Shown here: positions 20,234 through 38,011 of the stretch, one piece after another
Layout: each line of letters starts with the position of its first letter
Numbering within the stretch: position 1 is the first letter of the stretch
From: Vulcanimicrobiota bacterium
GTDB lineage: Bacteria; Vulcanimicrobiota; Xenobia; Xenobiales; JADMJV01
Assembly (NCBI GenBank): GCA_050250895.1
Contig: JBFWNU010000001.1
Span: forward strand, 2,628,891-2,692,890
DNA: 64,000 bases
Reading direction: 5' to 3'
Made by a program: the position numbers and the translations under genes
Notes under the pieces: generated by a model
Seen by the model: the letters and a program-made list of their open reading frames with translations, nothing else
Told to the model about the DNA's origin: nothing
The model's database searches: none

Positions 20234-20274
20234 TCCATGTGATGGAATGGTTCGGGGGACGGGAGGAAAATCAC

Positions 20275-21393
20275 TTGAACAAAGCCACTATCCTCATCGC
20301 CGATGACGAGGAATTTGCTCTCTTGCTGCTGGGTGACTTGCTTGGCCATCATGGTTACCTGGTCGAGACCGCCGGCGACGGCGAGGCGGCTCTGCAGAAG
20401 GCCCTGGCCCTGCGACCGGACGCCATCCTGCTCGACGTGATGATGCCCAAGCTCGATGGCTTCGAGGTGTGTGCGCGGCTCAAAGCGGCCCACTCGACTC
20501 GGGCCATTCCGGTGCTGCTGGTGACCGCCCTCAACCGGCAAGAATTTCGTAATCGGGGCATCGAGGCGGGCGCCGACGACTTTTTGAACAAGCCCTATGA
20601 CGCCACCGAAATTGCCCTGCGGGTGCGTAACGCGGTTCGCACCAAGCGATTGTTTGACGAGTCAGAGAGCAACTATCAGCGATTGGCGCGCCTCGAGCGC
20701 AGCCGCGACGAGCTCGTCCACATGCTAGTGCACGACCTGCGCAACCCGCTGGCCGCCGCTTCGCTGGCCAGCGAGATGCTCGACGACGAGCTCCGGGAGT
20801 TGCTGCTAGGCGACCAGACCGCCCTTCTTCAGGCAGTTCGCGACGGGCTGCGCGAGGTGACTGGTCTGGTCAATCAGATCCTGGAATACAGCCGACTCGA
20901 GTCCGAAACCCTGCCCGTCGAGCAGACGTCGGTGGACCTGCTCGAGTTGCTCGAACGTAACGCCGCCAACCGTTTGCTCTGCGAGCGGCGGGTGGTGCTC
21001 GACATGCCCCGGTCTGGGGTGCGAATCTGCAGTGATCCCGACCTGCTCAACCGGGTGCTCGAGAACCTGCTGAGCAACGCCGTCAAATACACCAAGCGCG
21101 GCGACGAGATCCGTCTCTCGCTCAAGCTCGACGGAAAGATCGTCCACCTGGTCGTCGAGGACACGGGTTGCGGCTTTGACCCGGCCCACGCCGAAGCCAT
21201 CTTCGACAAGTTCTTCCAGGTGGAAAGGCGCGGCCTGCCTGGAGCTAACGGCTCGTCGGGTCTGGGGCTGTCGTTTTGCAAACTGGCCATCGAGGCGCTG
21301 GGGGGGACCATTCGCGCCGAGAGCCAGCCCGGCCAGGGAAGCCGCTTCGAGGTGACCCTTCCCGGGGCGCAGTGCTCCCGAGCGGTGGCCTGA
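20275..21393 (+). CDS. Hybrid REC-histidine kinase
   Basis: ILIADDE, LLDVMMP, GADDFLNKP; H-box HDLRNPL; N-box NLLSNAVKY; DTGCG; GLGLS. TTG start after GGAGG. Confidence 0.92.
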   Translation: MNKATILIADDEEFALLLLGDLLGHHGYLVETAGDGEAALQKALALRPDAILLDVMMPKLDGFEVCARLKAAHSTRAIPVLLVTALNRQEFRNRGIEAGADDFLNKPYDATEIALRVRNAVRTKRLFDESESNYQRLARLERSRDELVHMLVHDLRNPLAAASLASEMLDDELRELLLGDQTALLQAVRDGLREVTGLVNQILEYSRLESETLPVEQTSVDLLELLERNAANRLLCERRVVLDMPRSGVRICSDPDLLNRVLENLLSNAVKYTKRGDEIRLSLKLDGKIVHLVVEDTGCGFDPAHAEAIFDKFFQVERRGLPGANGSSGLGLSFCKLAIEALGGTIRAESQPGQGSRFEVTLPGAQCSRAVA

Positions 21394-21965
21394 TGAAAGC
21401 TCGCTGTCCGCTCAAGGGTGTCATCTTCACCGAGTTCCTGGGCCTGGTCGAACAAATCGGAGGTTTCGAACTTGGCGATGGCGTGATCACGGCCGCCGGC
21501 CTGGACGGCGCGTACACAGCCCTGGGAAACTATCCCTACGAAGAATTGGTGGCTCTGGTCGAGCAGCTTTCTCTGCGTCTGGGTCAGCCGGTAGCCGTCT
21601 TGCTGGAACAGTTCGGGCGCCACCTGTTCGGGCGCTTTCTACAACTTTATCCCGATCTATTTCGTGACCATCGGGATGCTTTCGCCCTACTGGCCCGGCT
21701 CGATGACACCATTCACGTCGAAGTTCGCAAGCTCTATCCTGAGGCTACACCTCCTCGCTTCGAGTGTCGCCTCGATGGAGACTCCATGGAATTGGTCTAC
21801 ACCTCGGTCCGACCCTTTGCCGACCTGGCCCGAGGGCTGCTCAACGCTTGCCTGGAGGGTTATGGCGAGGGAATCGAAGTGCACGAGCAGGACGCTCGCG
21901 GGGATCGCCGGCAGGTCCGCTTCGACTTAAGGAGGCAAGAACTTGTCCGAGTCACTCCTGCGTAG
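21393..21965 (+). CDS. H-NOX (heme NO-binding) protein
   Basis: KGVIFTEFL N-terminus, proximal His in IHVEVRKLYP, PPRF, YxSxR motif YTSVR. TGATG coupling. Confidence 0.88.
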   Translation: MKARCPLKGVIFTEFLGLVEQIGGFELGDGVITAAGLDGAYTALGNYPYEELVALVEQLSLRLGQPVAVLLEQFGRHLFGRFLQLYPDLFRDHRDAFALLARLDDTIHVEVRKLYPEATPPRFECRLDGDSMELVYTSVRPFADLARGLLNACLEGYGEGIEVHEQDARGDRRQVRFDLRRQELVRVTPA

Positions 21966-22824
21966 TCTCGAGAGAGAGCGACGGGCTCGTCAGCAGGCCG
22001 AGAGCATCGCCGAGTCTCGGACTCGAGAGCTCTATGGGCTCAACTGCCGCCTCGAGCAATTAGTGGACGAGAAGACCATCCATCTGCGTCACGCCCTGGA
22101 GGTGGCCCGATCGGCCGACCAGACCAGATCCGCCTTTATCGCCCGCATCAGCCACGAGTTGCGGACTCCCCTGACGGCCATTCTGGGTTTCACCGAATTG
22201 ATGTTGGCCGGAGTGGTGGAACCCCTCGGCCCCCGTCAGCGCACTTATCTCGAGCAGATGCAAGCCCAGGGAAAGCGCCTTCAGAACTTGCTCGAGAACC
22301 TGCTGGACTTTGCCGAGGAGCAAGAGCTGGCGCCGACCTACGCACCCTTTCTTCCCTCTCGCCTGCTGGTCGGGGCGCGGGAGGTCTTCGCCAACTTGGC
22401 GGCCCAGCGTGGATTGGCCTTTGAACTGGTGCAACAGGGTGAGGACGGGCCCTTTCACGGCTCAGCCGAGACCCTGGAATTGGTGCTGCACGGCCTGCTG
22501 AGCAATGCCCTGCGGCTGACCCCGGTCGGGGGTAAGATCAAGGTCCAGGTGACCAGTTCCTCGGACCGTCTGCGAGTGTCGGTAACCGACACCGGACCCG
22601 GTCTGAGCCGCGAAGCCATGGGGCGGCTCTTCGAGTCTTTCCATCCCCTCGACTCATCCCTCTGTGCTGAAAGCCAGGGGGCTGGCCTGGGTCTGGCCCT
22701 GGCGCGTCAAAGGGTCGAAGCCCACGGGGGACAAGTCTGGGCCTGCAGTGACGGTCCCGGCAGCGGGGCGACTTTCGCCTTCGAGGTGCCGAGTGCAGCA
22801 TCCGGCCACTTCGCCCCACCCTGA
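21943..22824 (+). CDS. H-NOX-associated histidine kinase
   Basis: LERERRARQQAE coiled coil, SHELRTPL, SNAL, DTGPG, GAGLGLAL. Confidence 0.88.
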   Translation: MSESLLRSLERERRARQQAESIAESRTRELYGLNCRLEQLVDEKTIHLRHALEVARSADQTRSAFIARISHELRTPLTAILGFTELMLAGVVEPLGPRQRTYLEQMQAQGKRLQNLLENLLDFAEEQELAPTYAPFLPSRLLVGAREVFANLAAQRGLAFELVQQGEDGPFHGSAETLELVLHGLLSNALRLTPVGGKIKVQVTSSSDRLRVSVTDTGPGLSREAMGRLFESFHPLDSSLCAESQGAGLGLALARQRVEAHGGQVWACSDGPGSGATFAFEVPSAASGHFAPP

Positions 22825-28078: not shown

Positions 28079-29195
28079 ACTCGAGCAGTTTCTGGCCTCG
28101 GCCCGCCAGGGCCAGACCGAGTCGAGCGGAGTCTTCTCGGTCGACCCCGTCAAAGCACGCCAGAAGCTAGCTCTCTATCAATTTACCGACCCCTACATCT
28201 ATGTCTTGCGGCTGGTGCAGGCGGCGGTGGCGGCCGGGGCTGACCAGGTCAGCGTGTCCTCGGGCCAGCGCTCGGTCGAACTCGCCTTCAACAGCCGGTT
28301 CGCCCCCGAATCCCTGGAGCAGTTGCTGACTCTAGCCGGAGCCGGCCCGCCTCATCTGGCCGCCGGCCTGTACGGCGCCCTCAACGCCCGAGCCAGCCGG
28401 ATTATCTTGAGCAGCGGCTCGGCCCGTCTAAGCCTGACGGCTGGCGGCGGCCAGTTCAGCCAGACTGAGCCGGTCGAGGGCACTCACGTGACCATTCGCC
28501 GCAAAGCCCCAGGCTTTTTCTGGAAGAGCGACCGCGAGTCGGCGCTGGTGCGCGAGCGCTGTTGCTATGCGGCCCTGCCCATTCTTTGCAATGGCAAGAT
28601 CGTCAATCGGGCCTATCTCGGCCTGCCCGGCAATGACCCCGACCTTCGCGAAGGCGAGCGGTGGTTCTTGGGCGAGCCGTTAACCGACTACACCCAGCGC
28701 GAACTCTTTCTGATCGCTGAGGAGTTTCGGCCCGATCTTGTCACCGCTCCCTGGCAGCCCACCTGGGGCGCTTCGATGGAGGCCATCGACGGGCTGGACT
28801 GGCGCACCACCAAGGAGCTGCGCCGCAACCACAGCCAAAGCGCCCGGCGCTCGCGCTCGAAGGCGGCCGATAAGTGCTTCGCCCGCTGCCCTCGCCTGGG
28901 CACCCGGCGCTCGCGCTCACTCGTCCTCCCATCCGAGACCGAAGAGACACGCGCTCACCTGCGTCCCTGCCATCTGGCTCTGGCCACTCGCCGCGACAGC
29001 CAGGGGGATTCTCAACTGGTGGTGGTGCGCGACGGAGTGGCGCTCAACACCGTCTTCAACGCCTTTCCCAGCCCGGGCGCCCTGGCCGTGGTCTCGGGGC
29101 GCGCTCTCAAGACCGACGCGGGCGGAATGGCCGTGATCGAAGACCGCAACTACACTTCGCTGTGCCAGTATCTTGAATTGCTGGCCAATAGCTAG
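28071..29195 (+). CDS. Hypothetical protein with degenerate GHKL/Hsp90-like N-terminus (paralogue of 10095-11288)
   Basis: ESSGVFSVDPVKARQKLALYQF...LRLVQAAVAAGA; ERC...PILCNG; VVVRDGVAL. Confidence 0.6.
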   Translation: MSELEQFLASARQGQTESSGVFSVDPVKARQKLALYQFTDPYIYVLRLVQAAVAAGADQVSVSSGQRSVELAFNSRFAPESLEQLLTLAGAGPPHLAAGLYGALNARASRIILSSGSARLSLTAGGGQFSQTEPVEGTHVTIRRKAPGFFWKSDRESALVRERCCYAALPILCNGKIVNRAYLGLPGNDPDLREGERWFLGEPLTDYTQRELFLIAEEFRPDLVTAPWQPTWGASMEAIDGLDWRTTKELRRNHSQSARRSRSKAADKCFARCPRLGTRRSRSLVLPSETEETRAHLRPCHLALATRRDSQGDSQLVVVRDGVALNTVFNAFPSPGALAVVSGRALKTDAGGMAVIEDRNYTSLCQYLELLANS

Positions 29196-29638
29196 CTGTC
29201 GGTAGGGTCACTCACGTCGAGGAAAGGAAATAGCCTGAAGTCACGGATATTGCGAGTCCAAAGAGTCCGCACCTGGTAGCGCCGGAGAGTGGCGGCCAAC
29301 AGGCTATCGGCGACTCGGTGCCGCCCCAGTTTGTGTTCCTCGAGCAGAGCAAGCGCGTTGACCAGGTCAATCTCATCGCTGTGAAGCACCCTGACGTTGG
29401 AACGGCCTAAATAGAGGCGCGCTTCCCCGATGGCCTGGGCCATCGAGAGGGGAGGGTCGAAGCGTCTGGAGTCCGTGACGACATGGACCATCTCGTGGAG
29501 AATCGACACCGTCACGACCATCCGCCTGGTTCGATCCGACAACAAAGCCTGCAACGCAGCCAGGGACATTTCGTGTTCGGAAAAGGCGGGAAACTGCGCG
29601 TAGATTAGGAGGTTGGTGTCGACGGCAACGTCGCTCAC
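29192..29638 (-). CDS. vapC: VapC PIN-domain toxin
   Basis: AVDTNLLIYA, conserved E, ADSLLAA, TRNIRDF. Confidence 0.88.
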   Translation of the reverse strand: MSDVAVDTNLLIYAQFPAFSEHEMSLAALQALLSDRTRRMVVTVSILHEMVHVVTDSRRFDPPLSMAQAIGEARLYLGRSNVRVLHSDEIDLVNALALLEEHKLGRHRVADSLLAATLRRYQVRTLWTRNIRDFRLFPFLDVSDPTDS

Positions 29639-29874
29639 AGGTGACGAGTGCCCATTTCGTCATAGAGTTCAAAGCGTTCGGGTAGGGCGGCTACAGGTTG
29701 ATGCCCTTCGAAAAGAGGCAGCCGCTCCAGTCGTTCGAGAGGTTGCAGCCGCTCTTCGCGATAGAGACGCATCGCCTCACGCATGAGTTCGGCAATCGGA
29801 CGGTCGGTACGGTGAGCATGAGCCCGGAAGGCTTCGTAATCCTCTTCGGATACCGAAATCGATATTGTTCTCAT
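29635..29874 (-). CDS. Ribbon-helix-helix (CopG-like) antitoxin
   Basis: MRTISISVSEEDY...IAELMREAM; GTGA overlap with vapC. Confidence 0.82.
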   Translation of the reverse strand: MRTISISVSEEDYEAFRAHAHRTDRPIAELMREAMRLYREERLQPLERLERLPLFEGHQPVAALPERFELYDEMGTRHL

Positions 29875-29910
29875 ATGGTTTATGATATGGCTCGTGGCGG
29901 CCTCCGTCAA
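29872..29910 (-). promoter_or_regulatory. Leaderless sigma70 promoter of vapBC with overlapping inverted repeat (candidate operator)
   Basis: TTGACG-17-TATCAT-7 nt-ATG; CATAT-N8-ATATG spans the -10 box and the start codon. Confidence 0.65.
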
Positions 29911-29958
29911 GACGCCGGGGAGGTATGTCCCGCTCGTGACCAGAAAAATGCAGACAGG

Positions 29959-30291
29959 GTGAAAGGTCAGATTTCAAGATACCGGCCGGCGGCACGCCTA
30001 CTATTGAGCTTGGTGTTGGTCCTGTCGATGCTCGGCTATGGGCTCGACCTCAAGTGTGCCTTTAGCTCCGATTGTTGTCAGACTGCCGACTGCTGCCACG
30101 ACTGCGGTGCCCCTCCCCACAGCGATTGGACCGATCAGGCGCAGCCAAAGCCGCCGGTGGTGCTCACCCTGGCGCCGATGTCACCAGCCGGGCCCGACCT
30201 GGGGATACCCGAGGCACCGCCTCCCCAGACGAAACTAGTCTTTCAGGCCCCAGCCAGAGCCGAACCCTCTCGAGGCCCTCCCGCCGTCTAG
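29959..30291 (+). CDS. DUF2946-like leader protein (hydrophobic N-terminus, Cys cluster, C-terminal RGPP)
   Basis: ARLLLSLVLVLSMLGYG; CAFSSDCCQTADCCHDC; Pro-rich linker; ends SRGPPAV*. Start uncertain. Confidence 0.7.
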   Translation: MKGQISRYRPAARLLLSLVLVLSMLGYGLDLKCAFSSDCCQTADCCHDCGAPPHSDWTDQAQPKPPVVLTLAPMSPAGPDLGIPEAPPPQTKLVFQAPARAEPSRGPPAV

Positions 30292-30348
30292 TTGCCACCG
30301 CTGGTCTGCTCTTGCGGCCCCGTTTCACTAGAGGTTGGAGGCATTGGA

Positions 30349-31992
30349 GTGCCCGTCATCGATCATTTGCGCGCCCGCTGGCCCTGGCTGGTCGCGGGAG
30401 CGGTTCTCTTTCTATCTATTGTCCTGGTGGGTTATGGATTATCCCGGCGTCAGGCCACCCCGGTCGAAGAGAAGCCGATTCTCTCGGTGGTGGCCGGTAG
30501 GGCCGGGAAAGCCGGCGAAGTCCTGGTAACCCAGCAGGCACTCAAATTGGCCGAGATCGAAGTCGCGCCGGCGACGGTTCGTTCTGTGGCCGACAAGCTC
30601 ACCCTCACCGGCATTGTGCGAAGTGGGGGCAACCAGAAGGCCAAGATCACGCCCCAGGTGGCTGGCGAGGTGGTCGAGATCCGGTCCCTCATCGGCGATC
30701 AGGTCAAGAAGGGCCAGGTGTTGGCCTGTCTGGCCAGCCCCGAATTGGCCAGAGCTCAAGCCGATTTTCATGAGGCCGCGGCCAGGTTGGAGGTCTTTGA
30801 AGCCGACCTGGCTCGCAAAGAACAACTGGCCAGCCTGGGCGAGTACGGTAGCGATGCTTTGGAAGACTCTCACTCTCGAGCCGTCGAGGCGGAACGCAAT
30901 CTTCTCTCGGCCCGCCGTTCGGTGGCCGAGAAAGAAGCCGAGCTGACCGAAGCCCGCAGCCAGGTCGAGGTGCTAGCCAACCGGCTTGCTCAGGCCGAGG
31001 CCGAACTGGCCGTGAAGAAGGCGCACTACGAGCGGGCCAGGGCTGTGCCCGAAGTGGTCTCGCTGCAGAATCTGGAGCGGCTTCGGGCCGATTTCGAGAA
31101 GGCGAAGGCCGACGTGGCCGTCGCCCGCGCCTCGAAGCTCCAGGGCGAGGCGCACCTTCAGGTCGCCGGTCGCAATCTGGAAACGGCCATTGCCGAGCAA
31201 CCCTTGGTGCAAAAGGAATACGAGGTCCGCCGACGGGCACTGTCCAGAGAAGAGAAGATCTTCTCGGGCGGCTTTTCACGCAACCAGGAACTGGTCGATG
31301 CCCAGGCCCGACGCAATCTGGCTCGGGTCGAGCTTAGCAGCGCGGCCGAACGGGTCAAGCTGCTGGGTGGATCCCCCGGTGGAGGCAGCCGGGTGCTGTT
31401 GCGTTCCCCCATCGCGGGCAAGGTCGAAGAGGCCTCATTGACTCTGGGCGAGAGCCTCGATTCGGATCAGGTGGCCTTTATCGTGGTCAATCTCGACCGG
31501 GTCTGGGCGACTTTGGCGGTGGCCCCCAAGGACTTGCCCAAACTGGCTGTCGGCGATCAGGTCGAGCTTCGAGCCGACGCCGCCCCCGACCGTACCTTCC
31601 AGGCTCGCCTGACCAGTGTTGGGACCACCACCGACGAAACCACCCGCACCGTGCCGGTAACCGTCGCCATCGATCATCCCGAGGCCATTTTGGCGGCCGG
31701 CTCCTACGTTCAGGCGACAGTCCTTACCGAGGTTCACCATGACCGTCTGACCGTCCCGACATCGGCCTTGCAGGAGCATACCGGCCGGGCTACCATCTAT
31801 GTGGCCAGCCCCGAGCAGGTAGGACGTTTCGAGGTGCGTCATGTGGTTCTGGGCATTCAAGAGGGCGATTGGCAAGAGATTGCCGACGGCCTGGCACCCA
31901 ACGAGTCGCTCGCTATCGGGGGCACTTTCTACCTCAAGTCAGAAGCCCTGAAGAGTTCGCTCTCCGACGGGTGCTGTGCGGTGGGGAAATAG
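30349..31992 (+). CDS. RND periplasmic adaptor, CzcB-like
   Basis: N-terminal TM, AGEVVEIRSLIGDQVKKGQVLA, long coiled coil, RSPIAGKV; C-terminal DGCCAVGK. GGAGG SD then GTG. Confidence 0.88.
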   Translation: MPVIDHLRARWPWLVAGAVLFLSIVLVGYGLSRRQATPVEEKPILSVVAGRAGKAGEVLVTQQALKLAEIEVAPATVRSVADKLTLTGIVRSGGNQKAKITPQVAGEVVEIRSLIGDQVKKGQVLACLASPELARAQADFHEAAARLEVFEADLARKEQLASLGEYGSDALEDSHSRAVEAERNLLSARRSVAEKEAELTEARSQVEVLANRLAQAEAELAVKKAHYERARAVPEVVSLQNLERLRADFEKAKADVAVARASKLQGEAHLQVAGRNLETAIAEQPLVQKEYEVRRRALSREEKIFSGGFSRNQELVDAQARRNLARVELSSAAERVKLLGGSPGGGSRVLLRSPIAGKVEEASLTLGESLDSDQVAFIVVNLDRVWATLAVAPKDLPKLAVGDQVELRADAAPDRTFQARLTSVGTTTDETTRTVPVTVAIDHPEAILAAGSYVQATVLTEVHHDRLTVPTSALQEHTGRATIYVASPEQVGRFEVRHVVLGIQEGDWQEIADGLAPNESLAIGGTFYLKSEALKSSLSDGCCAVGK

Positions 31993-31996
31993 GCTC

Positions 31997-34900
31997 TTGC
32001 TCAATCGACTCGTCCACCTCTCCATCCGGCATCGCTTCTTCGTGGTATTGTTGGCGGGATTACTGGCCATCGGTGGCCTCTACTCCGGCTTCACTCTGCC
32101 TGTCGACGCCGTCCCGGACATTACCACCACCCAGGTGGTAGTCAATACGAGTGCCCCGGCCCTGGCTCCCGAAGAGATCGAGGCCCAACTGACGCGCAGG
32201 CTCGAGCTGTTGCTTTCGGGCTTGCCCCACGTGATCGAAATGAGGAGCATCTCGCAGTTTGGGCTCTCGCAAATCACCCTGGTCTTCGAGGACGGTACCG
32301 ACATCTATTTTGCCCGCCAACTGGTCGGCGAGCGGCTGGCCGAGGCGGACCAGCAGCTGCCGCCAGGCGCCTCCTCTCCCAGCCTGGCTCCGGTGGCCAC
32401 CGGATTGGGCGAGATCTATTATGTCTTTGTCGAGAGCGAGAGCCTGTCGCTGATGGAGCGACGTTCGCTGCTGGACTGGAAGGTCAAACCACGCTTGCGC
32501 ACGGTTCCGGGAGTGATCGAGGTCAACACCTTCGGCGGCCATGTCAAGCAGTATCAAGTGCTGGCCGATCCCTATCGCCTACAGGCCTATGGAGTGAGTC
32601 TGGAACGCCTCGAACAGGCCCTGCGTCAGAACAACCAGAACGCGGGCGGCTCTTACGTTCACAAGGAGGACGAGCAGCAACTGGTGCAGGCCGTCGGCCT
32701 GGTCGAGTCCCTCGACGACCTGCGCAACATCGTGCTGCTGTCCAATGACGGCGTCCCTGTGCTGGTAAAGGATGTGGCCACCGTGTCCTTCGGGGCCGCC
32801 CCCCGCCAGGGCACCATCACCCGCAACGGTCAGGGCGAGGCAGTGGCAGCCATTGCGGTCATGCTGATGGGCGAGAACAGCCGCACCGTGACCGAGCGGG
32901 TCAAGCAAAGAGTGGCCGAAATCCAGCACGAGATGCCTCCGGGAGTGAAGCTGGTAGGCTTTCTCGACCGCACGCGATTGGTCAACGAAACCCTGCATAC
33001 CGCCGGTGAGAACCTGCTCCACGGCGGGGTCCTGGTAGTGTTGGTCCTGTTTCTCTTCCTGCTGCAACTGCGAGCCGGTCTGATCGTGAGTTCCATCATC
33101 CCCATGGCCATGCTGTTCGCGCTGATCGGCATGAGATATCTGGGTATCTCGGCCAACTTGATGAGTCTCGGAGCCATCGACTTCGGCATCGTGGTCGACG
33201 CCGCCGTCATCATCGTCGAGAATTGCGTGCGCCGGTTGGCCGAGCGGCACCATCACCTGGGTCGCGCCCTCTCTTGCCAGGAGCGTCTGGCCGTCATTGA
33301 AGAGGGCGTGGTCGAAGTGCGCCAGGCCAGCCAGTTCGGGGAACTGATCATCATCGCCGCCTATCTGCCGGTCCTTAGTCTCACCGGGGTGGAAGGCAAA
33401 ATGTTTCGGCCCATGGGTATGACCGTGATCCTGGCTCTGCTGGGGGCGGTCTTGCTGTCGGCCACCCTGGTGCCGGCCCTGTGCGCCTACTTCCTCAGCG
33501 AGGATAGCGAGCGCGAGAACCCTTTCCTCGAGAAGCTAAGGCTGCACTATCGCAAGGCCCTTCACCGGGCAATCCCCAACCGGGCCACAGTATTGGGTGT
33601 GGCCCTGGGGACTTTTCTGCTGGCCTGTCTTGCCTTTCCCCACCTGGGGGCCGAGTTTTTGCCCAAGTTGGATGAAGGCGCCATCGCGATCAATCCGGGT
33701 TATCTTCCCGGCATCTCGGTGGAGACTGCCATCGAGCGAGCCACCCTGGTTGAGCAGTATCTGCTGGCCGAGTTTCCGGATGAGATCGACGAGATCGCCA
33801 CCCGCATCGGCCGGCCCGACATCGCCACCGATCCCATGCTACTTTCTCAGCACGACATCTTCATCTCGCTAGAACCCCGCCGCCGCTGGACTCGGGCCTC
33901 CTCTAAGGAAGAACTGGTGGGGGCCATCGAGGCCTCGCTGGTCAACGTCCCGGGAATGAAGATGTCTTTCACCCAGCCCATCGAGATGCGCATGAACGAA
34001 CTCTCCCAGGGGGTCGGCATCCGGGCCGACCTGGGGGTCAAGCTGTTCGGTCCCGACATGGCCATGCTCGGGCGCAAGGCTGTCGAGGTTGCCGACGTCA
34101 TGCGGGCCATCCCGGGAAATGCCGATGTCAGTGTCGAGACCATGGCTGGGCTGCCCACCCTCAAGATTCACACCCGTCGTCGCGATCTGGCCCGGTACGG
34201 TATCAATGTGGACGATGTCAATCAGGTAGTGGCTACCGCCATTGGTGGGGCGGTGGTGGGTCAGGTGCTCGAAGGTGAAGAGGTCTACGACATTTTTCTC
34301 CGCTACCAGGAGCCGTTCCGAAAGGACAAGGAGGCCATCGCGAAGATCCTGGTCGAGAGCAGCAGTGGCCAACTGGCTCCTTTATCGGCCCTGGCCACCA
34401 TCGAAAGCTCCGAAGGGCCGGTGCAGGTCAGCCGTGAGTCGGCCCAGCGCCGAGTGGTCGTTCAGGCCAACGTGCGCGGGCGCGACCTTGGCAGTTTCGT
34501 GGAAGAAGTCCAGCAAACGGTCGAGCAGAAGGTCAAGCTGCCCCCCGGCTATCACATCGAGTGGAGTGGCCAGTATGAGCATCTCCAGTCAGGCAGGGCC
34601 CGACTGGCCATCATCGTGCCCATCACGTTTTGCATTATCTTCCTCTTGCTCTACCTGACCTATGGTAACGCCTTCGATGCCCTAAGGGTGTTCACCGGCA
34701 TTCCCTTTGCCATTACCGGGGGGATCTTTGCACTATTTTTGCGGGGCATGCCCTTCTCCATGTCGGCGGGAGTGGGTTTCATCGCTCTCTCTGGCATTGC
34801 TGTGCTGGCCGACATGGTCATGGTTCAAACCATCCGCCTTTATCTCGATCAGGGGATAGCCCCGGGTCAGGCTATCGAGATGGCCGCCCTCAACCGGCTT

Positions 34901-35104
34901 CGGCCGGTATTGATGACGGCTGCCGTGGCCGCCATCGGTTTCCTTCCCATGGCCTTGTCGAGTGGCACCGGAGCCGAGGTCCAGAAGCCACTGGCCACGG
35001 TGGTCATCGGCGGCCTGATTAGCTCCACTCTGCTGACCCTGCTGGTGCTGCCCGCCCTCTACTCTTACCTTCAGGACCGAAAGGAGGCTCCTACCGTGGA
35101 CTGA
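31997..35104 (+). CDS. czcA: CzcA/CusA family heavy-metal RND permease
   Basis: PVDAVPDIT, TGLGEIY, TM4 AIDFGIVVDAAVIIVEN (divalent-cation type), RLRPVLMTA, GAEVQKPLATVVIGG. Confidence 0.92.
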   Translation: MLNRLVHLSIRHRFFVVLLAGLLAIGGLYSGFTLPVDAVPDITTTQVVVNTSAPALAPEEIEAQLTRRLELLLSGLPHVIEMRSISQFGLSQITLVFEDGTDIYFARQLVGERLAEADQQLPPGASSPSLAPVATGLGEIYYVFVESESLSLMERRSLLDWKVKPRLRTVPGVIEVNTFGGHVKQYQVLADPYRLQAYGVSLERLEQALRQNNQNAGGSYVHKEDEQQLVQAVGLVESLDDLRNIVLLSNDGVPVLVKDVATVSFGAAPRQGTITRNGQGEAVAAIAVMLMGENSRTVTERVKQRVAEIQHEMPPGVKLVGFLDRTRLVNETLHTAGENLLHGGVLVVLVLFLFLLQLRAGLIVSSIIPMAMLFALIGMRYLGISANLMSLGAIDFGIVVDAAVIIVENCVRRLAERHHHLGRALSCQERLAVIEEGVVEVRQASQFGELIIIAAYLPVLSLTGVEGKMFRPMGMTVILALLGAVLLSATLVPALCAYFLSEDSERENPFLEKLRLHYRKALHRAIPNRATVLGVALGTFLLACLAFPHLGAEFLPKLDEGAIAINPGYLPGISVETAIERATLVEQYLLAEFPDEIDEIATRIGRPDIATDPMLLSQHDIFISLEPRRRWTRASSKEELVGAIEASLVNVPGMKMSFTQPIEMRMNELSQGVGIRADLGVKLFGPDMAMLGRKAVEVADVMRAIPGNADVSVETMAGLPTLKIHTRRRDLARYGINVDDVNQVVATAIGGAVVGQVLEGEEVYDIFLRYQEPFRKDKEAIAKILVESSSGQLAPLSALATIESSEGPVQVSRESAQRRVVVQANVRGRDLGSFVEEVQQTVEQKVKLPPGYHIEWSGQYEHLQSGRARLAIIVPITFCIIFLLLYLTYGNAFDALRVFTGIPFAITGGIFALFLRGMPFSMSAGVGFIALSGIAVLADMVMVQTIRLYLDQGIAPGQAIEMAALNRLRPVLMTAAVAAIGFLPMALSSGTGAEVQKPLATVVIGGLISSTLLTLLVLPALYSYLQDRKEAPTVD

Positions 35105-35150: not shown

Positions 35151-35468
35151 ATGAAAAAGACCATTTCCATTGTTCTCGTCGTGCTGGCAGCCCTGCTGTG
35201 CGGCTGCGCCAACAACCACCCCGAGCAACCCGTCGCCGACGCCACCATTCAGGCCAGTCCAACCGCTCGGGCCGCCTACGTCTATGACCTGGGCAGCAAG
35301 AAAAAAGGCGACATGGGCCTGTGCGTGATTTGTAGTGTCGACAAAGGCGAGGCGCACGAGGAGGCGGCGGCCGAAAGTATAGACTACGAAGGTAAGACCT
35401 ACCTCTTCTGCAACGAGCAAGAGAAGGCTACCTTCATCTCGGAGCCCTCGAAATACGCGGCCAAGTAA
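35151..35468 (+). CDS. YHS-domain lipoprotein
   Basis: Lipobox LCGC; CVIC...YEGKTYLFC...F...PSKY; AAGGAG SD. Confidence 0.82.
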   Translation: MKKTISIVLVVLAALLCGCANNHPEQPVADATIQASPTARAAYVYDLGSKKKGDMGLCVICSVDKGEAHEEAAAESIDYEGKTYLFCNEQEKATFISEPSKYAAK

Positions 35469-35470
35469 GC

Positions 35471-36721
35471 ATGAGCGGGAGAGTTGGTTGGAAGCTTCTG
35501 CTGCTGGTTTTCTGGCTGGCTTCTCCCGCTGGTGCTGACCCATTGTGGCCCGATGAGGCGGTCCGTCTGGCCTTGCAGATCGACCCGCGCCTGCAGCGCG
35601 AACGAGCCCTGGTGGAGGGGGCGCGGGCCTACAGCCAGGGAGCCGGCGCCCTGCCCAATCCCGTGTTGCAGCTTTCGGCCGTGGACGGAAGCTCACCGGA
35701 GGACAGCAACTCCTTGACCCAGACTCTCGAGATCGCCGGCCAGCCGTACCTGCGGGGCCAGGCCGCGGCCCGCGACCACCAGATCGCCCTGGCCGGCTTC
35801 GAGAAGACCCGGCGTGAGGTGATTCGCGAGGCGGCACGAGCCTACTATGACTACTGGGAAGCCCTGGCCGTGGCGCGACTGTATGCAGGCCAGCTCGACT
35901 TTGCCACCAGGCTGCAAGACATCGCCGAAAAACGTCTGGCCGCCGGCGAGATTTCGTCTCAGGAGAAGCTGCGCGTCGAGCAAAACCGCGCTGAGGTCGA
36001 GGTGGCCGTCGTGAGCATCAACGGCCAGCTGGCCGTGGCTCGGCGCCGGCTCGAGGCCATGTTGGCCGACCAATCCTTCAGGTTACCCTCGACCGAGGAG
36101 CCCGTTCCCGACGCCCCGGCCTTCGCCGGGCTCACCAGCGATCAGTTCCAAGAACTCGAATTGGGGCTGGTGACCCGCCCTGAACTCGTGGCCGCCCAGC
36201 GGGCCGCCGAGCGAGACGACTTCGCGGCCCGCCTGGCGGGGCGAGCGGGAGCCCCTGACTTGCAGGTCAGCGCCTACCGCTCCAGCCTCGGCAATCTGGC
36301 CAACCAGGGAATCCAGTTTTCGCTGGTCGTTCCCCTGTTTGACTGGGGACGAACCGGAGCCGAGGCGGCCCGTCGCAGAAAAGTGGCCGAGGCTCGGGTT
36401 TACGAGGTTTTCGCCGTCCGGCGTCAGGTCGGCCTGGAACTCTATTCGGCCTTTAATGCCTACCAGATAGCCCGACAAAAGCGCGACCTGACCCGTCAAC
36501 TGGCCGGCAACTATCTGCACTTCATGCAGGTCACGCACCAGGGCTACGCCATCGGGCTGCTCTCGTTCGTGGAAGTCTTCGACGCGCAGTCCGCCAATCT
36601 GCGTGGCTTTGAGTCATACCTCCGGGCTGAAGCCGAGTTCAGACGCGCCCAGGTCGAACTCTGGTGGGCCTCTGGTCTCGACTACGGGCCGAGCCGCGCC
36701 GACGAGGCGGCCGCGCTATGA
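35471..36721 (+). CDS. TolC/CzcC-family outer membrane factor
   Basis: Signal peptide, ALPNPVL, two helical repeats, VPLFDW, YAIGLLSFVEVFDAQ. Confidence 0.88.
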   Translation: MSGRVGWKLLLLVFWLASPAGADPLWPDEAVRLALQIDPRLQRERALVEGARAYSQGAGALPNPVLQLSAVDGSSPEDSNSLTQTLEIAGQPYLRGQAAARDHQIALAGFEKTRREVIREAARAYYDYWEALAVARLYAGQLDFATRLQDIAEKRLAAGEISSQEKLRVEQNRAEVEVAVVSINGQLAVARRRLEAMLADQSFRLPSTEEPVPDAPAFAGLTSDQFQELELGLVTRPELVAAQRAAERDDFAARLAGRAGAPDLQVSAYRSSLGNLANQGIQFSLVVPLFDWGRTGAEAARRRKVAEARVYEVFAVRRQVGLELYSAFNAYQIARQKRDLTRQLAGNYLHFMQVTHQGYAIGLLSFVEVFDAQSANLRGFESYLRAEAEFRRAQVELWWASGLDYGPSRADEAAAL

Positions 36722-37503: not shown

Positions 37504-37561
37504 CCGGAGGTTGTCTCGCTTTGGTCGTCGTGGTAGATTCGATGTAGATACGGAGGCGGGA

Positions 37562-37804
37562 TTGAAGACACAACTGGCAATGTGGGGCAATAGCCTGGCC
37601 GTTAGGATACCCAGGGCGCTAACCGAGGAACTCTCCCTGATGAAGGGTGTCGAGGTCGATCTTCAGGTCGAGGACGGGCGTCTCGTCGTCGTGCCGACCA
37701 GGCGGCCCCACTATGAACTGGGTGATCTGGTTCGCGAGATCACCGACGAGAATCGCCACCCGCAGCTCGACTGGGGCGAGGCGAGGGGGGAGGAGGCGTG
37801 GTGA
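37562..37804 (+). CDS. mazE: MazE/AbrB antitoxin
   Basis: MWGNSLAVRIP...DWGEARGEEAW; GGAGG then TTG. Confidence 0.88.
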   Translation: MKTQLAMWGNSLAVRIPRALTEELSLMKGVEVDLQVEDGRLVVVPTRRPHYELGDLVREITDENRHPQLDWGEARGEEAW

Positions 37805-38011
37805 GTGGCTCTGTTTTGCCCCGTCACTTCACGGCGGAAAGGCTACCCTTTCGAGGTTCCCCTGCCGACTGGCGGGCCTGTAGCCGGGGTCGTGCTAGCC
37901 GACCAGGTTCGTTGTCTGGATTGGAGGGCGCGGCGCGCTGACCTGATTGCCACCGCCGAGGCATCTCTGGTGGAAGAGGTGGTGGCCCGCGTAGAGGCGC
38001 TGATCCGCTAG
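37798..38011 (+). pseudogene. mazF: MazF toxin with internal N-terminal deletion
   Basis: Only the C-terminal half remains (ALFCPVTSRRKGYPFEV...LADQVRCLDWRAR); the GDxxW...GxEQxGxRP segment is absent. Confidence 0.78.

Follow-up and report, generated by a model that had tools for sequence, protein, structure and literature searches.

Metal efflux pumps are textbook cases of two-component or MerR-type control. Control by a small exported peptide that arrests its own ribosome has so far been tested experimentally for copper only, namely for CutF, which controls an oxidase, and for CruR, which controls an importer. In Rhodobacter capsulatus, a copper-prolonged stall on CutF melts the stem-loop over the Shine-Dalgarno (SD) sequence of the next gene (PMC9973294; bioRxiv 10.1101/2025.02.05.636593). 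In Bordetella pertussis, copper relieves the arrest on CruR and shuts the importer off via Rho (PMC9426467). The present study concerns a 110-residue upstream open reading frame (uORF) in a 64,000-nucleotide stretch of Vulcanimicrobiota bacterium DNA (contig JBFWNU010000001.1, positions 2,628,891 to 2,692,890; hereafter the window), which precedes a heavy-metal efflux operon of the resistance-nodulation-division (RND) type. Our analysis supports the core of an earlier note on this DNA, namely a conserved Cys-rich leader with an RGPP motif before a Czc-like efflux operon, whereas the interpretation built on it is partly supported. We consider that the uORF probably acts in cis as a sensor leader of the CutF/CruR/SecM type.

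Recently, RGPP has been described as the most robust RAPP-like arrest core, being the strongest in four arrest-peptide contexts (PMC12992588). According to the same article, RAPP and RGPP are depleted from proteomes and concentrated towards the C-terminal ends of small proteins of the secretory or membrane type, which precede diverse genes, metal-related ones included. In vitro arrest was reported for seven S. lividans proteins and, at RAPP, for CruR, and for CruR the first Pro codon was mapped to the P site and the second to the A site (PMC12992588). The metal-related neighbours given there are TonB receptors, YcnI, PCu(A)C and PepSY; the words 'efflux' and 'RND' have 0 occurrences each in its main text. 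Downstream of CutF-like genes, the commonest genes are those for OEP, ACR_tran and HlyD_D23 proteins of Cus/Czc systems (PMC9973294). Since CutF-like and RAPP/RGPP uORFs have already been placed bioinformatically before Cus/Czc RND genes, the kind of element described here is known. The link of arrest leaders to RND exporters is bioinformatic only, and no experiment on such a leader upstream of an RND exporter was found in the available parts of the literature searched.

Comparison with described arrest-peptide leaders

By all four rules that define the 'CutF-like' class (PMC9973294), the window ORF falls within it. The CutF gene and the window ORF both specify a short exported peptide in which a Cys motif follows the signal and a Pro motif falls within the last 15 residues, and both are separated by a short spacer from a same-strand metal gene whose SD lies in a stem-loop. 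The logic that we propose is also the same, in that a metal-prolonged stall raises a detoxifying system. However, CutF carries CxxxC and a PPP-type stall and stands before a multicopper oxidase, whereas the window peptide carries a penta-Cys pattern with CxxC, ends in RGPP and stands before a Czc-like adaptor. Furthermore, the window family and CutF (DUF2946) have no detectable sequence relation.

CruR (Bp2923, DUF2946) resembles the uORF product in being exported and poorly structured and in carrying CXXC and R-x-P-P (PMC9426467). Its arrest core lies 2-3 residues from the C-terminus, the spacing of its motifs is conserved, and a bubble with more C than G covers the 3' part of its gene (PMC9426467). 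In CruR, about 45 residues separate CXXC from RAPP and this distance is held within 1-2 residues (PMC9426467), as compared with 55 residues in the window peptide and 59-62 in 30 homologs. CruR combines RAPP with DUF2946, whereas the window peptide has RGPP and falls outside DUF2946. As copper relieves the CruR arrest to shut an importer off, the opposite polarity would be expected for an exporter.

The RAPP/RGPP class, with ApdA, ApdP, ApcA and the S. lividans proteins, shares with the uORF a C-terminal core, a localisation signal and a co-directional gene; in some of its members, Cys or His residues are conserved and the neighbouring genes are related to metal (PMC12992588). The sequence features by which this class is recognised are found in the window peptide and its locus: an R-[AG]-P-P core, a length of <300 residues, a C-terminal position of the motif, an N-terminal hydrophobic segment and a co-directional gene. 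SecM, VemP and MifM are alike in that they are exported, stall as nascent chains until a pulling force releases them, and through the stall open a structure that covers a downstream SD (PMC12992588, PMC9973294). They differ in monitoring the export machinery itself and in having no metal-type motif.

A separate family of Cys-rich peptides with a C-terminal RGPP

An exhaustive phmmer search (1.84 billion representatives) retrieved four proteins with E values of 1.6e-8 to 1.9e-5. Profile searches gave 11 and then 17 clusters, in all 22 different 90%-identity clusters, which amount to 34 database homologs when cluster members are counted. Several homologs are encoded on long contigs (P0013 up to 247,640 nt, P0004 37,215 nt, P0035 22,781 nt, P0008 13,798 nt and P0007 12,464 nt). 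RGPP is present in 32 of these 34, once in each, at 1-11 residues from the stop. Both exceptions are imperfect sequences: P0005, from a 521-nt contig, is truncated by the contig end, and RGPP is present in P0024 of the same cluster; P0019 is a frameshifted read-through of 239 residues that diverges from its cluster mates directly after 'RG'. In an alignment of 20 sequences, in which the homologs share 25-37% identity with the peptide of the window, the invariant positions are L22, Y27, L29, C33, C40, C45, C46, C49, R105, G106, P107 and P108. The penta-Cys pattern is found in 30 of the 34 homologs, and the other four are fragments, a deletion or a one-residue spacing variant. RGPP is preceded by the consensus [DE]-P-[VS]. 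Counted from CCxxC to the R of RGPP, the distance measures 56 residues in the window peptide and 60-63 in those 30 homologs in which both motifs occur. The earlier note had described a 110-residue uORF with a hydrophobic N-terminus, a six-Cys pattern and a terminal RGPPAV; all of these are present and the gene is conserved across the 34 homologs. The Cys cluster and the C-terminal RGPP, which the note had picked out, turn out to be the two conserved blocks of the family, and its reading of RGPP as an arrest sequence agrees with the published ranking cited above (PMC12992588).

No match to the peptide and its relatives was obtained in sequence searches of Pfam, NCBIfam and PDB. With PF11162 (DUF2946), none of 12 family members matched at E <= 10, and the window peptide gave no match at E <= 0.01. 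Profile comparison by hhalign gave a probability of 0.2% against a weak DUF2946 ORF (L030) and of 0.1% against a DUF6660-like ORF (L017), both from other adaptor loci. Therefore, the term 'DUF2946-type' used in the note holds for the architecture of the peptide and fails for its family. An Atlas feature search with the homolog P0013 led to unnamed small-protein clusters, with a DUF2946/DUF6769 cluster at rank 12 (92 shared features), which we regard as a lead only. A tblastn search of P0013 against a plasmid collection gave no match. The adaptor protein was also used to scan genome contigs, giving 80 loci with at most 39% identity in the best segment and at most 32% for near-full-length matches; the peptide-family profile scored none of the six-frame ORFs at these loci (0/80), and solely the ORF of the window scored. 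The family is unnamed in the available parts of the literature searched. Judged by its conservation at the protein level, the uORF is a real conserved coding gene. New here is the family itself, a sequence group apart that is marked by five Cys, RGPP and a spacer of about 60 residues and that stands in the window before a pump not of the Cus type.

The uORF runs from GTG 29959 to TAG 30289-30291. The N-terminus of its product is basic (K2, R7, R9, R13), and a G-Y-G / S-Y-S stretch may form a signal-peptidase-like site. C46-H-D-C49 is an invariant CXXC inside the larger five-Cys cluster. The peptide ends E-P-S-R105-G-P-P108-A109-V110, with two residues between the motif and the stop. Positioned after the published mapping (PMC12992588), the predicted arrest would have CCT 30277-79 in the P site and CCC 30280-82 in the A site. 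CCT is rare among the Pro codons nearby (14 of 161 in six neighbouring genes). All three CCT Pro codons of the uORF (30112, 30220 and 30277) precede CCC, making three CCTCC pentamers. An AlphaFold2 model from a 12-sequence alignment has a mean predicted local distance difference test (pLDDT) score of 55 and is confident solely at a helix of residues 9-27; the rest is modelled as disordered, with pLDDT <50 for 46 of 110 residues, including most of the spacer. A like picture has been published for CruR (PMC9426467). This pattern of a targeting signal, a ligand motif, a set spacer and an arrest core fits a nascent-chain sensor and does not fit a folded periplasmic protein. A longer in-frame ORF from TTG 29698 (197 residues) was considered and rejected, as it overlaps the divergent ribbon-helix-helix antitoxin gene and the N-termini of the homologs match GTG 29959.

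A Czc-like pump with no metal regulator found nearby

In an alignment of the permease with E. coli CusA (L081), 367 of 1021 aligned positions are identical, and the fourth transmembrane (TM) segment reads AIDFGIVVDAAVIIVEN. This segment contains D402-F-G, D408 and E415-N. At the positions of CusA M573, M623 and M672, the permease has N573, Q625 and E675, and the Met triad is thus absent. The motif D-F-G-x3-D-x-A-x3-V-E-N in TM4, together with the lack of the CusA Met573/623/672 triad, is what we take to be the mark of a Czc-like pump. As read from these residues, the permease is probably a divalent-cation pump of the Czc-like kind and not a Cu(I)/Ag(I) pump. The DFGxxxD motif named in the note is therefore in place.

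The note had also remarked that no two-component or MerR-type regulator lies next to the operon. In agreement with this, no MerR, ArsR or metal two-component gene was found among the Pfam-scanned ORFs, which cover about 16-47 kb of the window. The closest histidine kinases are at 20239-22824, about 7 kb off and beside an H-NOX gene.

The hairpin over the adaptor SD sequence

A hairpin that hides the SD of the adaptor gene was the other main claim of the note, and its pairing is recovered by folding. The minimum free energy structure of 30265-30355 (-32.2 kcal/mol) contains the hairpin pairs, and in the ensemble of 30180-30420 their probabilities are 0.56-1.0, mostly at least 0.95. Nucleotides 30277-81 pair with 30337-41, 30283-85 with 30333-35 (GCC/GGU) and 30287-92 with 30327-32 (UCUAGU/ACUAGA). 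The 5' arm takes in the uORF stop codon, TAG 30289-91. The arrested ribosome, whose P site would hold the first Pro codon, was assumed to have a footprint of -12 to +15, or 30265-30292, and this footprint covers the whole 5' arm. This geometry agrees with an opening of the hairpin by a stalled ribosome; the fate of the SD once the arm is occupied is taken up below. In the model, a second CCUCC at 30220-24 is the preferred partner of the SD (probability 0.74) under the footprint of a terminating ribosome. Compared with 21 other ORFs of the window, two have a ribosome-binding site (RBS) at least as closed as that of the adaptor, and none of the nine with a recognisable SD does, in a comparison that is rough owing to the heuristic choice of the 21 start sites. 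This result and the use of the rare codon CCT for the first Pro of RGPP speak slightly in favour of the hairpin.

Proposed mechanism and alternative explanations

In the proposed mechanism, the N-terminal signal or anchor would direct the nascent chain to the Sec translocon, and the ribosome would arrest at R105-G-P-P108, its P site occupied by Pro107-tRNA and its A site by the Pro108 codon. The Cys cluster would then lie 56-63 residues from the peptidyl-transferase centre. This corresponds approximately to the ribosomal tunnel plus the translocon, and the five conserved Cys should therefore be placed just outside the membrane. Without ligand, export or folding would pull the chain and release the arrest, the uORF would terminate, and the Pro-Pro/stop region would continue to mask the adaptor SD by pairing. 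If the Cys cluster held a thiophilic metal, release would be delayed, so that the stalled ribosome would cover 30265-30292 and free GGAGG 30337-41; it may also shield a C-rich Rho-loading region, and the operon would be expressed. The ORF, its motifs and their conservation, the constraint on the spacer, the operon and the predicted pairing are what the analysis shows; the arrest and its coupling to the operon, by SD unmasking or by anti-termination, are what we infer, as are the topology, the ligand and whether metal raises or lowers expression.

Control of a pump by its own leader would amount to compact, protein-free sensing, in which the periplasm is read during chain export. Tentatively, and with less conviction than for the sensor leader as such, we suggest that the penta-Cys/RGPP family constitutes a regulator-free co-translational periplasmic sensor of thiophilic divalent metals (Zn, Cd, Co) that would gate a Czc-like RND pump directly, at the level of translation or transcription. 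If so, it would be the first arrest-peptide sensor that is not for copper and that controls an exporter. The spacer of about 60 residues would be tuned such that the Cys cluster leaves SecYEG as RGPP meets the peptidyl-transferase centre. Together with the unrelated two-TM uORFs described in the last section, this would also mean that arrest-peptide control of heavy-metal efflux has evolved several times. The locus and the family provide a small test case for a non-Cus pump, with invariant Cys and RGPP, a fixed spacer and a 57-nt gap, and the family adds a sequence group outside Pfam coverage.

Several observations weigh against a metal-sensing leader that acts by unmasking the SD, and most of them concern the hairpin. 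The 91-nt fold has a z score of -0.63, with 45 of 200 shuffles at least as stable, and a 201-nt fold has z = +0.14. Opening the region from the SD to the start codon costs 14.15 kcal/mol; shuffling of the upstream part gives 12.6 +/- 2.7 kcal/mol, with 53 of 200 shuffles at or above the native cost. With the footprint of the arrested ribosome imposed, opening the RBS still costs 10.9 kcal/mol in the model, because the SD re-pairs with 30295-99 or with the second CCUCC at 30220-24. At four analogous loci with unrelated R[AG]PP uORFs (L004, L006, L007 and L038), where the starts were assigned by eye, pairing between the SD and the Pro-Pro codons was found in none (0/4). In the folding model, therefore, the pairing of the hairpin holds and its stability above shuffles does not; the hairpin is indistinguishable from background folding. 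As regards the peptide, the spacer in the window is 4-7 residues shorter than that of every homolog, and co-directional efflux genes downstream are known at the window locus alone. The GTG start of the uORF is preceded by only a weak SD-like sequence. A word-index search of a 5.8-billion-protein set with the single sequence gave 18 candidates, of which none scored, and the ORF itself was not retrieved either.

The latter two points, namely the weak SD before the GTG and the missing self-match in the clustered protein set, could also suggest a chance, untranslated ORF in GC-rich DNA, as could a G+C content at third codon positions of 0.69, against 0.74-0.78 in the neighbouring genes. We give this explanation practically no credence, since 34 homologs in 22 clusters at 90% identity, conserved at the protein level, contradict it. 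The failure of the hairpin to exceed chance bears more on how the arrest would be coupled to the operon. The same arrest sensor could work through Rho-dependent termination, as in Bordetella CruR, with the stall shielding a C-rich Rho-utilisation (rut) region; release of the stall would then lead to termination before the adaptor gene, and the SD hairpin would be incidental or secondary. The GC skew is negative over the 3' two-thirds of the uORF and the spacer before the adaptor gene (C>G bubble, Table 1); it falls to -0.385 at 30220-30299 and turns positive beyond either end, and in position and nature this bubble is like the rut region mapped in cruR (PMC9426467). Because of this likeness, anti-termination is a live alternative or addition to SD unmasking. 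However, C-richness is a direct outcome of Pro-rich coding and requires no selection, and strong structure is predicted for the bubble region, unlike rut sites, which lack structure (PMC9426467). On balance, we rate coupling through Rho as unlikely.

What the peptide would sense, if it arrests, is a separate matter. The five invariant Cys directly after the signal segment would also suit a sensor of periplasmic thiol oxidation (Dsb) or of Sec export capacity, in which disulfide formation in the Cys cluster would be the pulling force and the efflux operon mere cargo. RAPP/RGPP uORFs with conserved Cys pairs are enriched before DsbA and thioredoxin genes as well, and Sec/YidC is what classical arrest peptides monitor (PMC12992588). 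Yet the genes downstream are a complete heavy-metal RND system with a protein of a metal-binding-type YHS domain, and the operon has no redox or Sec gene, which makes this explanation rather improbable. A Cys-rich exported peptide encoded in the same orientation as the pump genes might instead be a small periplasmic or membrane metal-binding accessory of the pump, chaperone-like, with no regulatory role for RGPP. This we find hard to believe, given a model that is disordered past the signal helix and a sole conserved C-terminal feature that is the arrest core RGPP, which proteomes otherwise avoid. The sensor leader before the efflux operon thus remains the explanation that we prefer.

Features of the locus and neighbouring genes

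Coordinates of the leader, its sub-elements and the efflux genes are collected in Table 1. The uORF and the adaptor gene are co-directional in the window, with 57 nt between the uORF stop and the adaptor GTG. For the adaptor, GTG 30349 is preferred as the start because GGAGG stands 7 nt upstream. TTG 30292, which is in frame and directly abuts the uORF stop TAG, was judged less likely; if it were used, the adaptor would gain a 19-residue N-terminal extension and its translation could be coupled to the uORF by termination-reinitiation. The adaptor also scores 148 bits with TIGR01730 (cut-off 94.9). The gene of the YHS-domain protein lies between those of the RND permease and the outer-membrane factor. 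By eye, the sequence of this protein shows a lipobox-like LLCGC and an additional C-x2-C, and it may serve the pump as an accessory that handles metal in the periplasm.

Table 1. Positions of predicted and annotated features in the window, with the two-TM uORFs of other adaptor loci in the last row (locus coordinates)
Feature	Position	Strand	Evidence or remark
Promoter-like site TCGATA-16-TATGAT	29859..29886	+	consensus scan only, 9/12 matches; not evidence of function
uORF, 110 aa, GTG start	29959..30291	+	translation; unnamed penta-Cys/RGPP family
Hydrophobic signal/anchor segment, residues 11-29	29989..30045	+	sequence reading
C>G bubble, candidate Rho-utilisation region	30020..30340 (about)	+	GC skew profile
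Cys cluster C33-x5-C39C40-x4-C45C46-x2-C49	30055..30105	+	six Cys; candidate periplasmic metal or thiol sensor
Pro-rich spacer, sequence poorly conserved, length constrained	30106..30270	+	56 aa in window
RGPP codons CGA GGC CCT CCC (R105 G106 P107 P108)	30271..30282	+	predicted arrest site
Hairpin 5' arm: anti-SD CCUCC 30277-81, GCC 30283-85, UCUAGU 30287-92	30275..30292	+	pair probabilities
Hairpin 3' arm with adaptor SD GGAGG 30337-41	30327..30342	+	pair probabilities 0.95-1.0
Adaptor (membrane-fusion protein), 547 aa, GTG start 7 nt past SD	30349..31992	+	HlyD_D23 3.8e-29
Heavy-metal efflux (HME) RND permease, CusA/CzcA family	31976..35104	+	TIGR00914 1206.8 bits, cut-off 701.45
YHS-domain protein, 105 aa, lipoprotein-like N-terminus	35151..35468	+	PF04945 30.7 bits, cut-off 30.3
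Outer-membrane efflux factor	35471..36721	+	PF02321 OEP 6.2e-28
Two-TM uORFs at five distant adaptor loci	L004:1913-2332, L006:2134-2553, L007:2043-2462, L012:308-745, L038:825-1244	+	motif FPVIS-x-[ST]DDL

The promoter-like site falls in the divergent spacer between a ribbon-helix-helix (RHH) antitoxin gene and the uORF. Upstream, on the opposite strand, lies an RHH/PIN toxin-antitoxin pair; downstream of the operon are an uncharacterised ORF and a MazE/MazF pair. Two type II toxin-antitoxin pairs thus flank the efflux operon, RHH/PIN at 29192-29876 (-) and MazE/PemK-like at 37511-38011 (+), and this bracketing may mark a mobile or island-like context. Farther upstream, a hybrid response-regulator/histidine kinase, an H-NOX (HNOB) protein and a second histidine kinase are encoded in series at 20239-22824 (+), a cluster that looks like nitric oxide or haem-ligand signalling. 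The window also contains a whole rRNA operon (16S, 23S, 5S) at 2159-7169 (+), and the 3' end of the 16S rRNA has the canonical CCUCC anti-SD. In an Rfam search of the whole window, only these rRNAs were matched, with no match at the leader (29800-30500, E <= 1).

Other leader-like ORFs at distant adaptor loci

Five of the 80 adaptor loci (L004, L006, L007, L012 and L038), from Acidobacteriota and Binatia metagenome-assembled genomes (MAGs), have an unrelated uORF of about 139-145 residues with two TM segments (Table 1). These uORFs lie directly upstream of OEP-adaptor-RND genes and end in GR[AG]PP or YRGPP, 1-6 residues from the stop. In three of the five, the Pro-Pro codons are CCT-CCN, which gives CCTCC. 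A related ORF at L064:3243-3662 ends in NRPPP. In a Chitinophagales sequence, a His-rich ORF (HHHHDEAEHH...) at L068:2246-2632 (+) ends in GLRAPPFLA and stands before a 510-residue ORF and the adaptor match. Neither the two-TM uORFs nor the L064 and L068 ORFs gave a match in Pfam. At the Roseibium locus, a sub-threshold DUF2946 ORF (L030:3343-3723, +; E 0.005) ends in KRPPRLL directly before the adaptor gene. The DUF6660-like ORF of L017 (L017:1726-2241, +; E 1.3e-5), from a Phycisphaerae MAG, ends in HPPRA.

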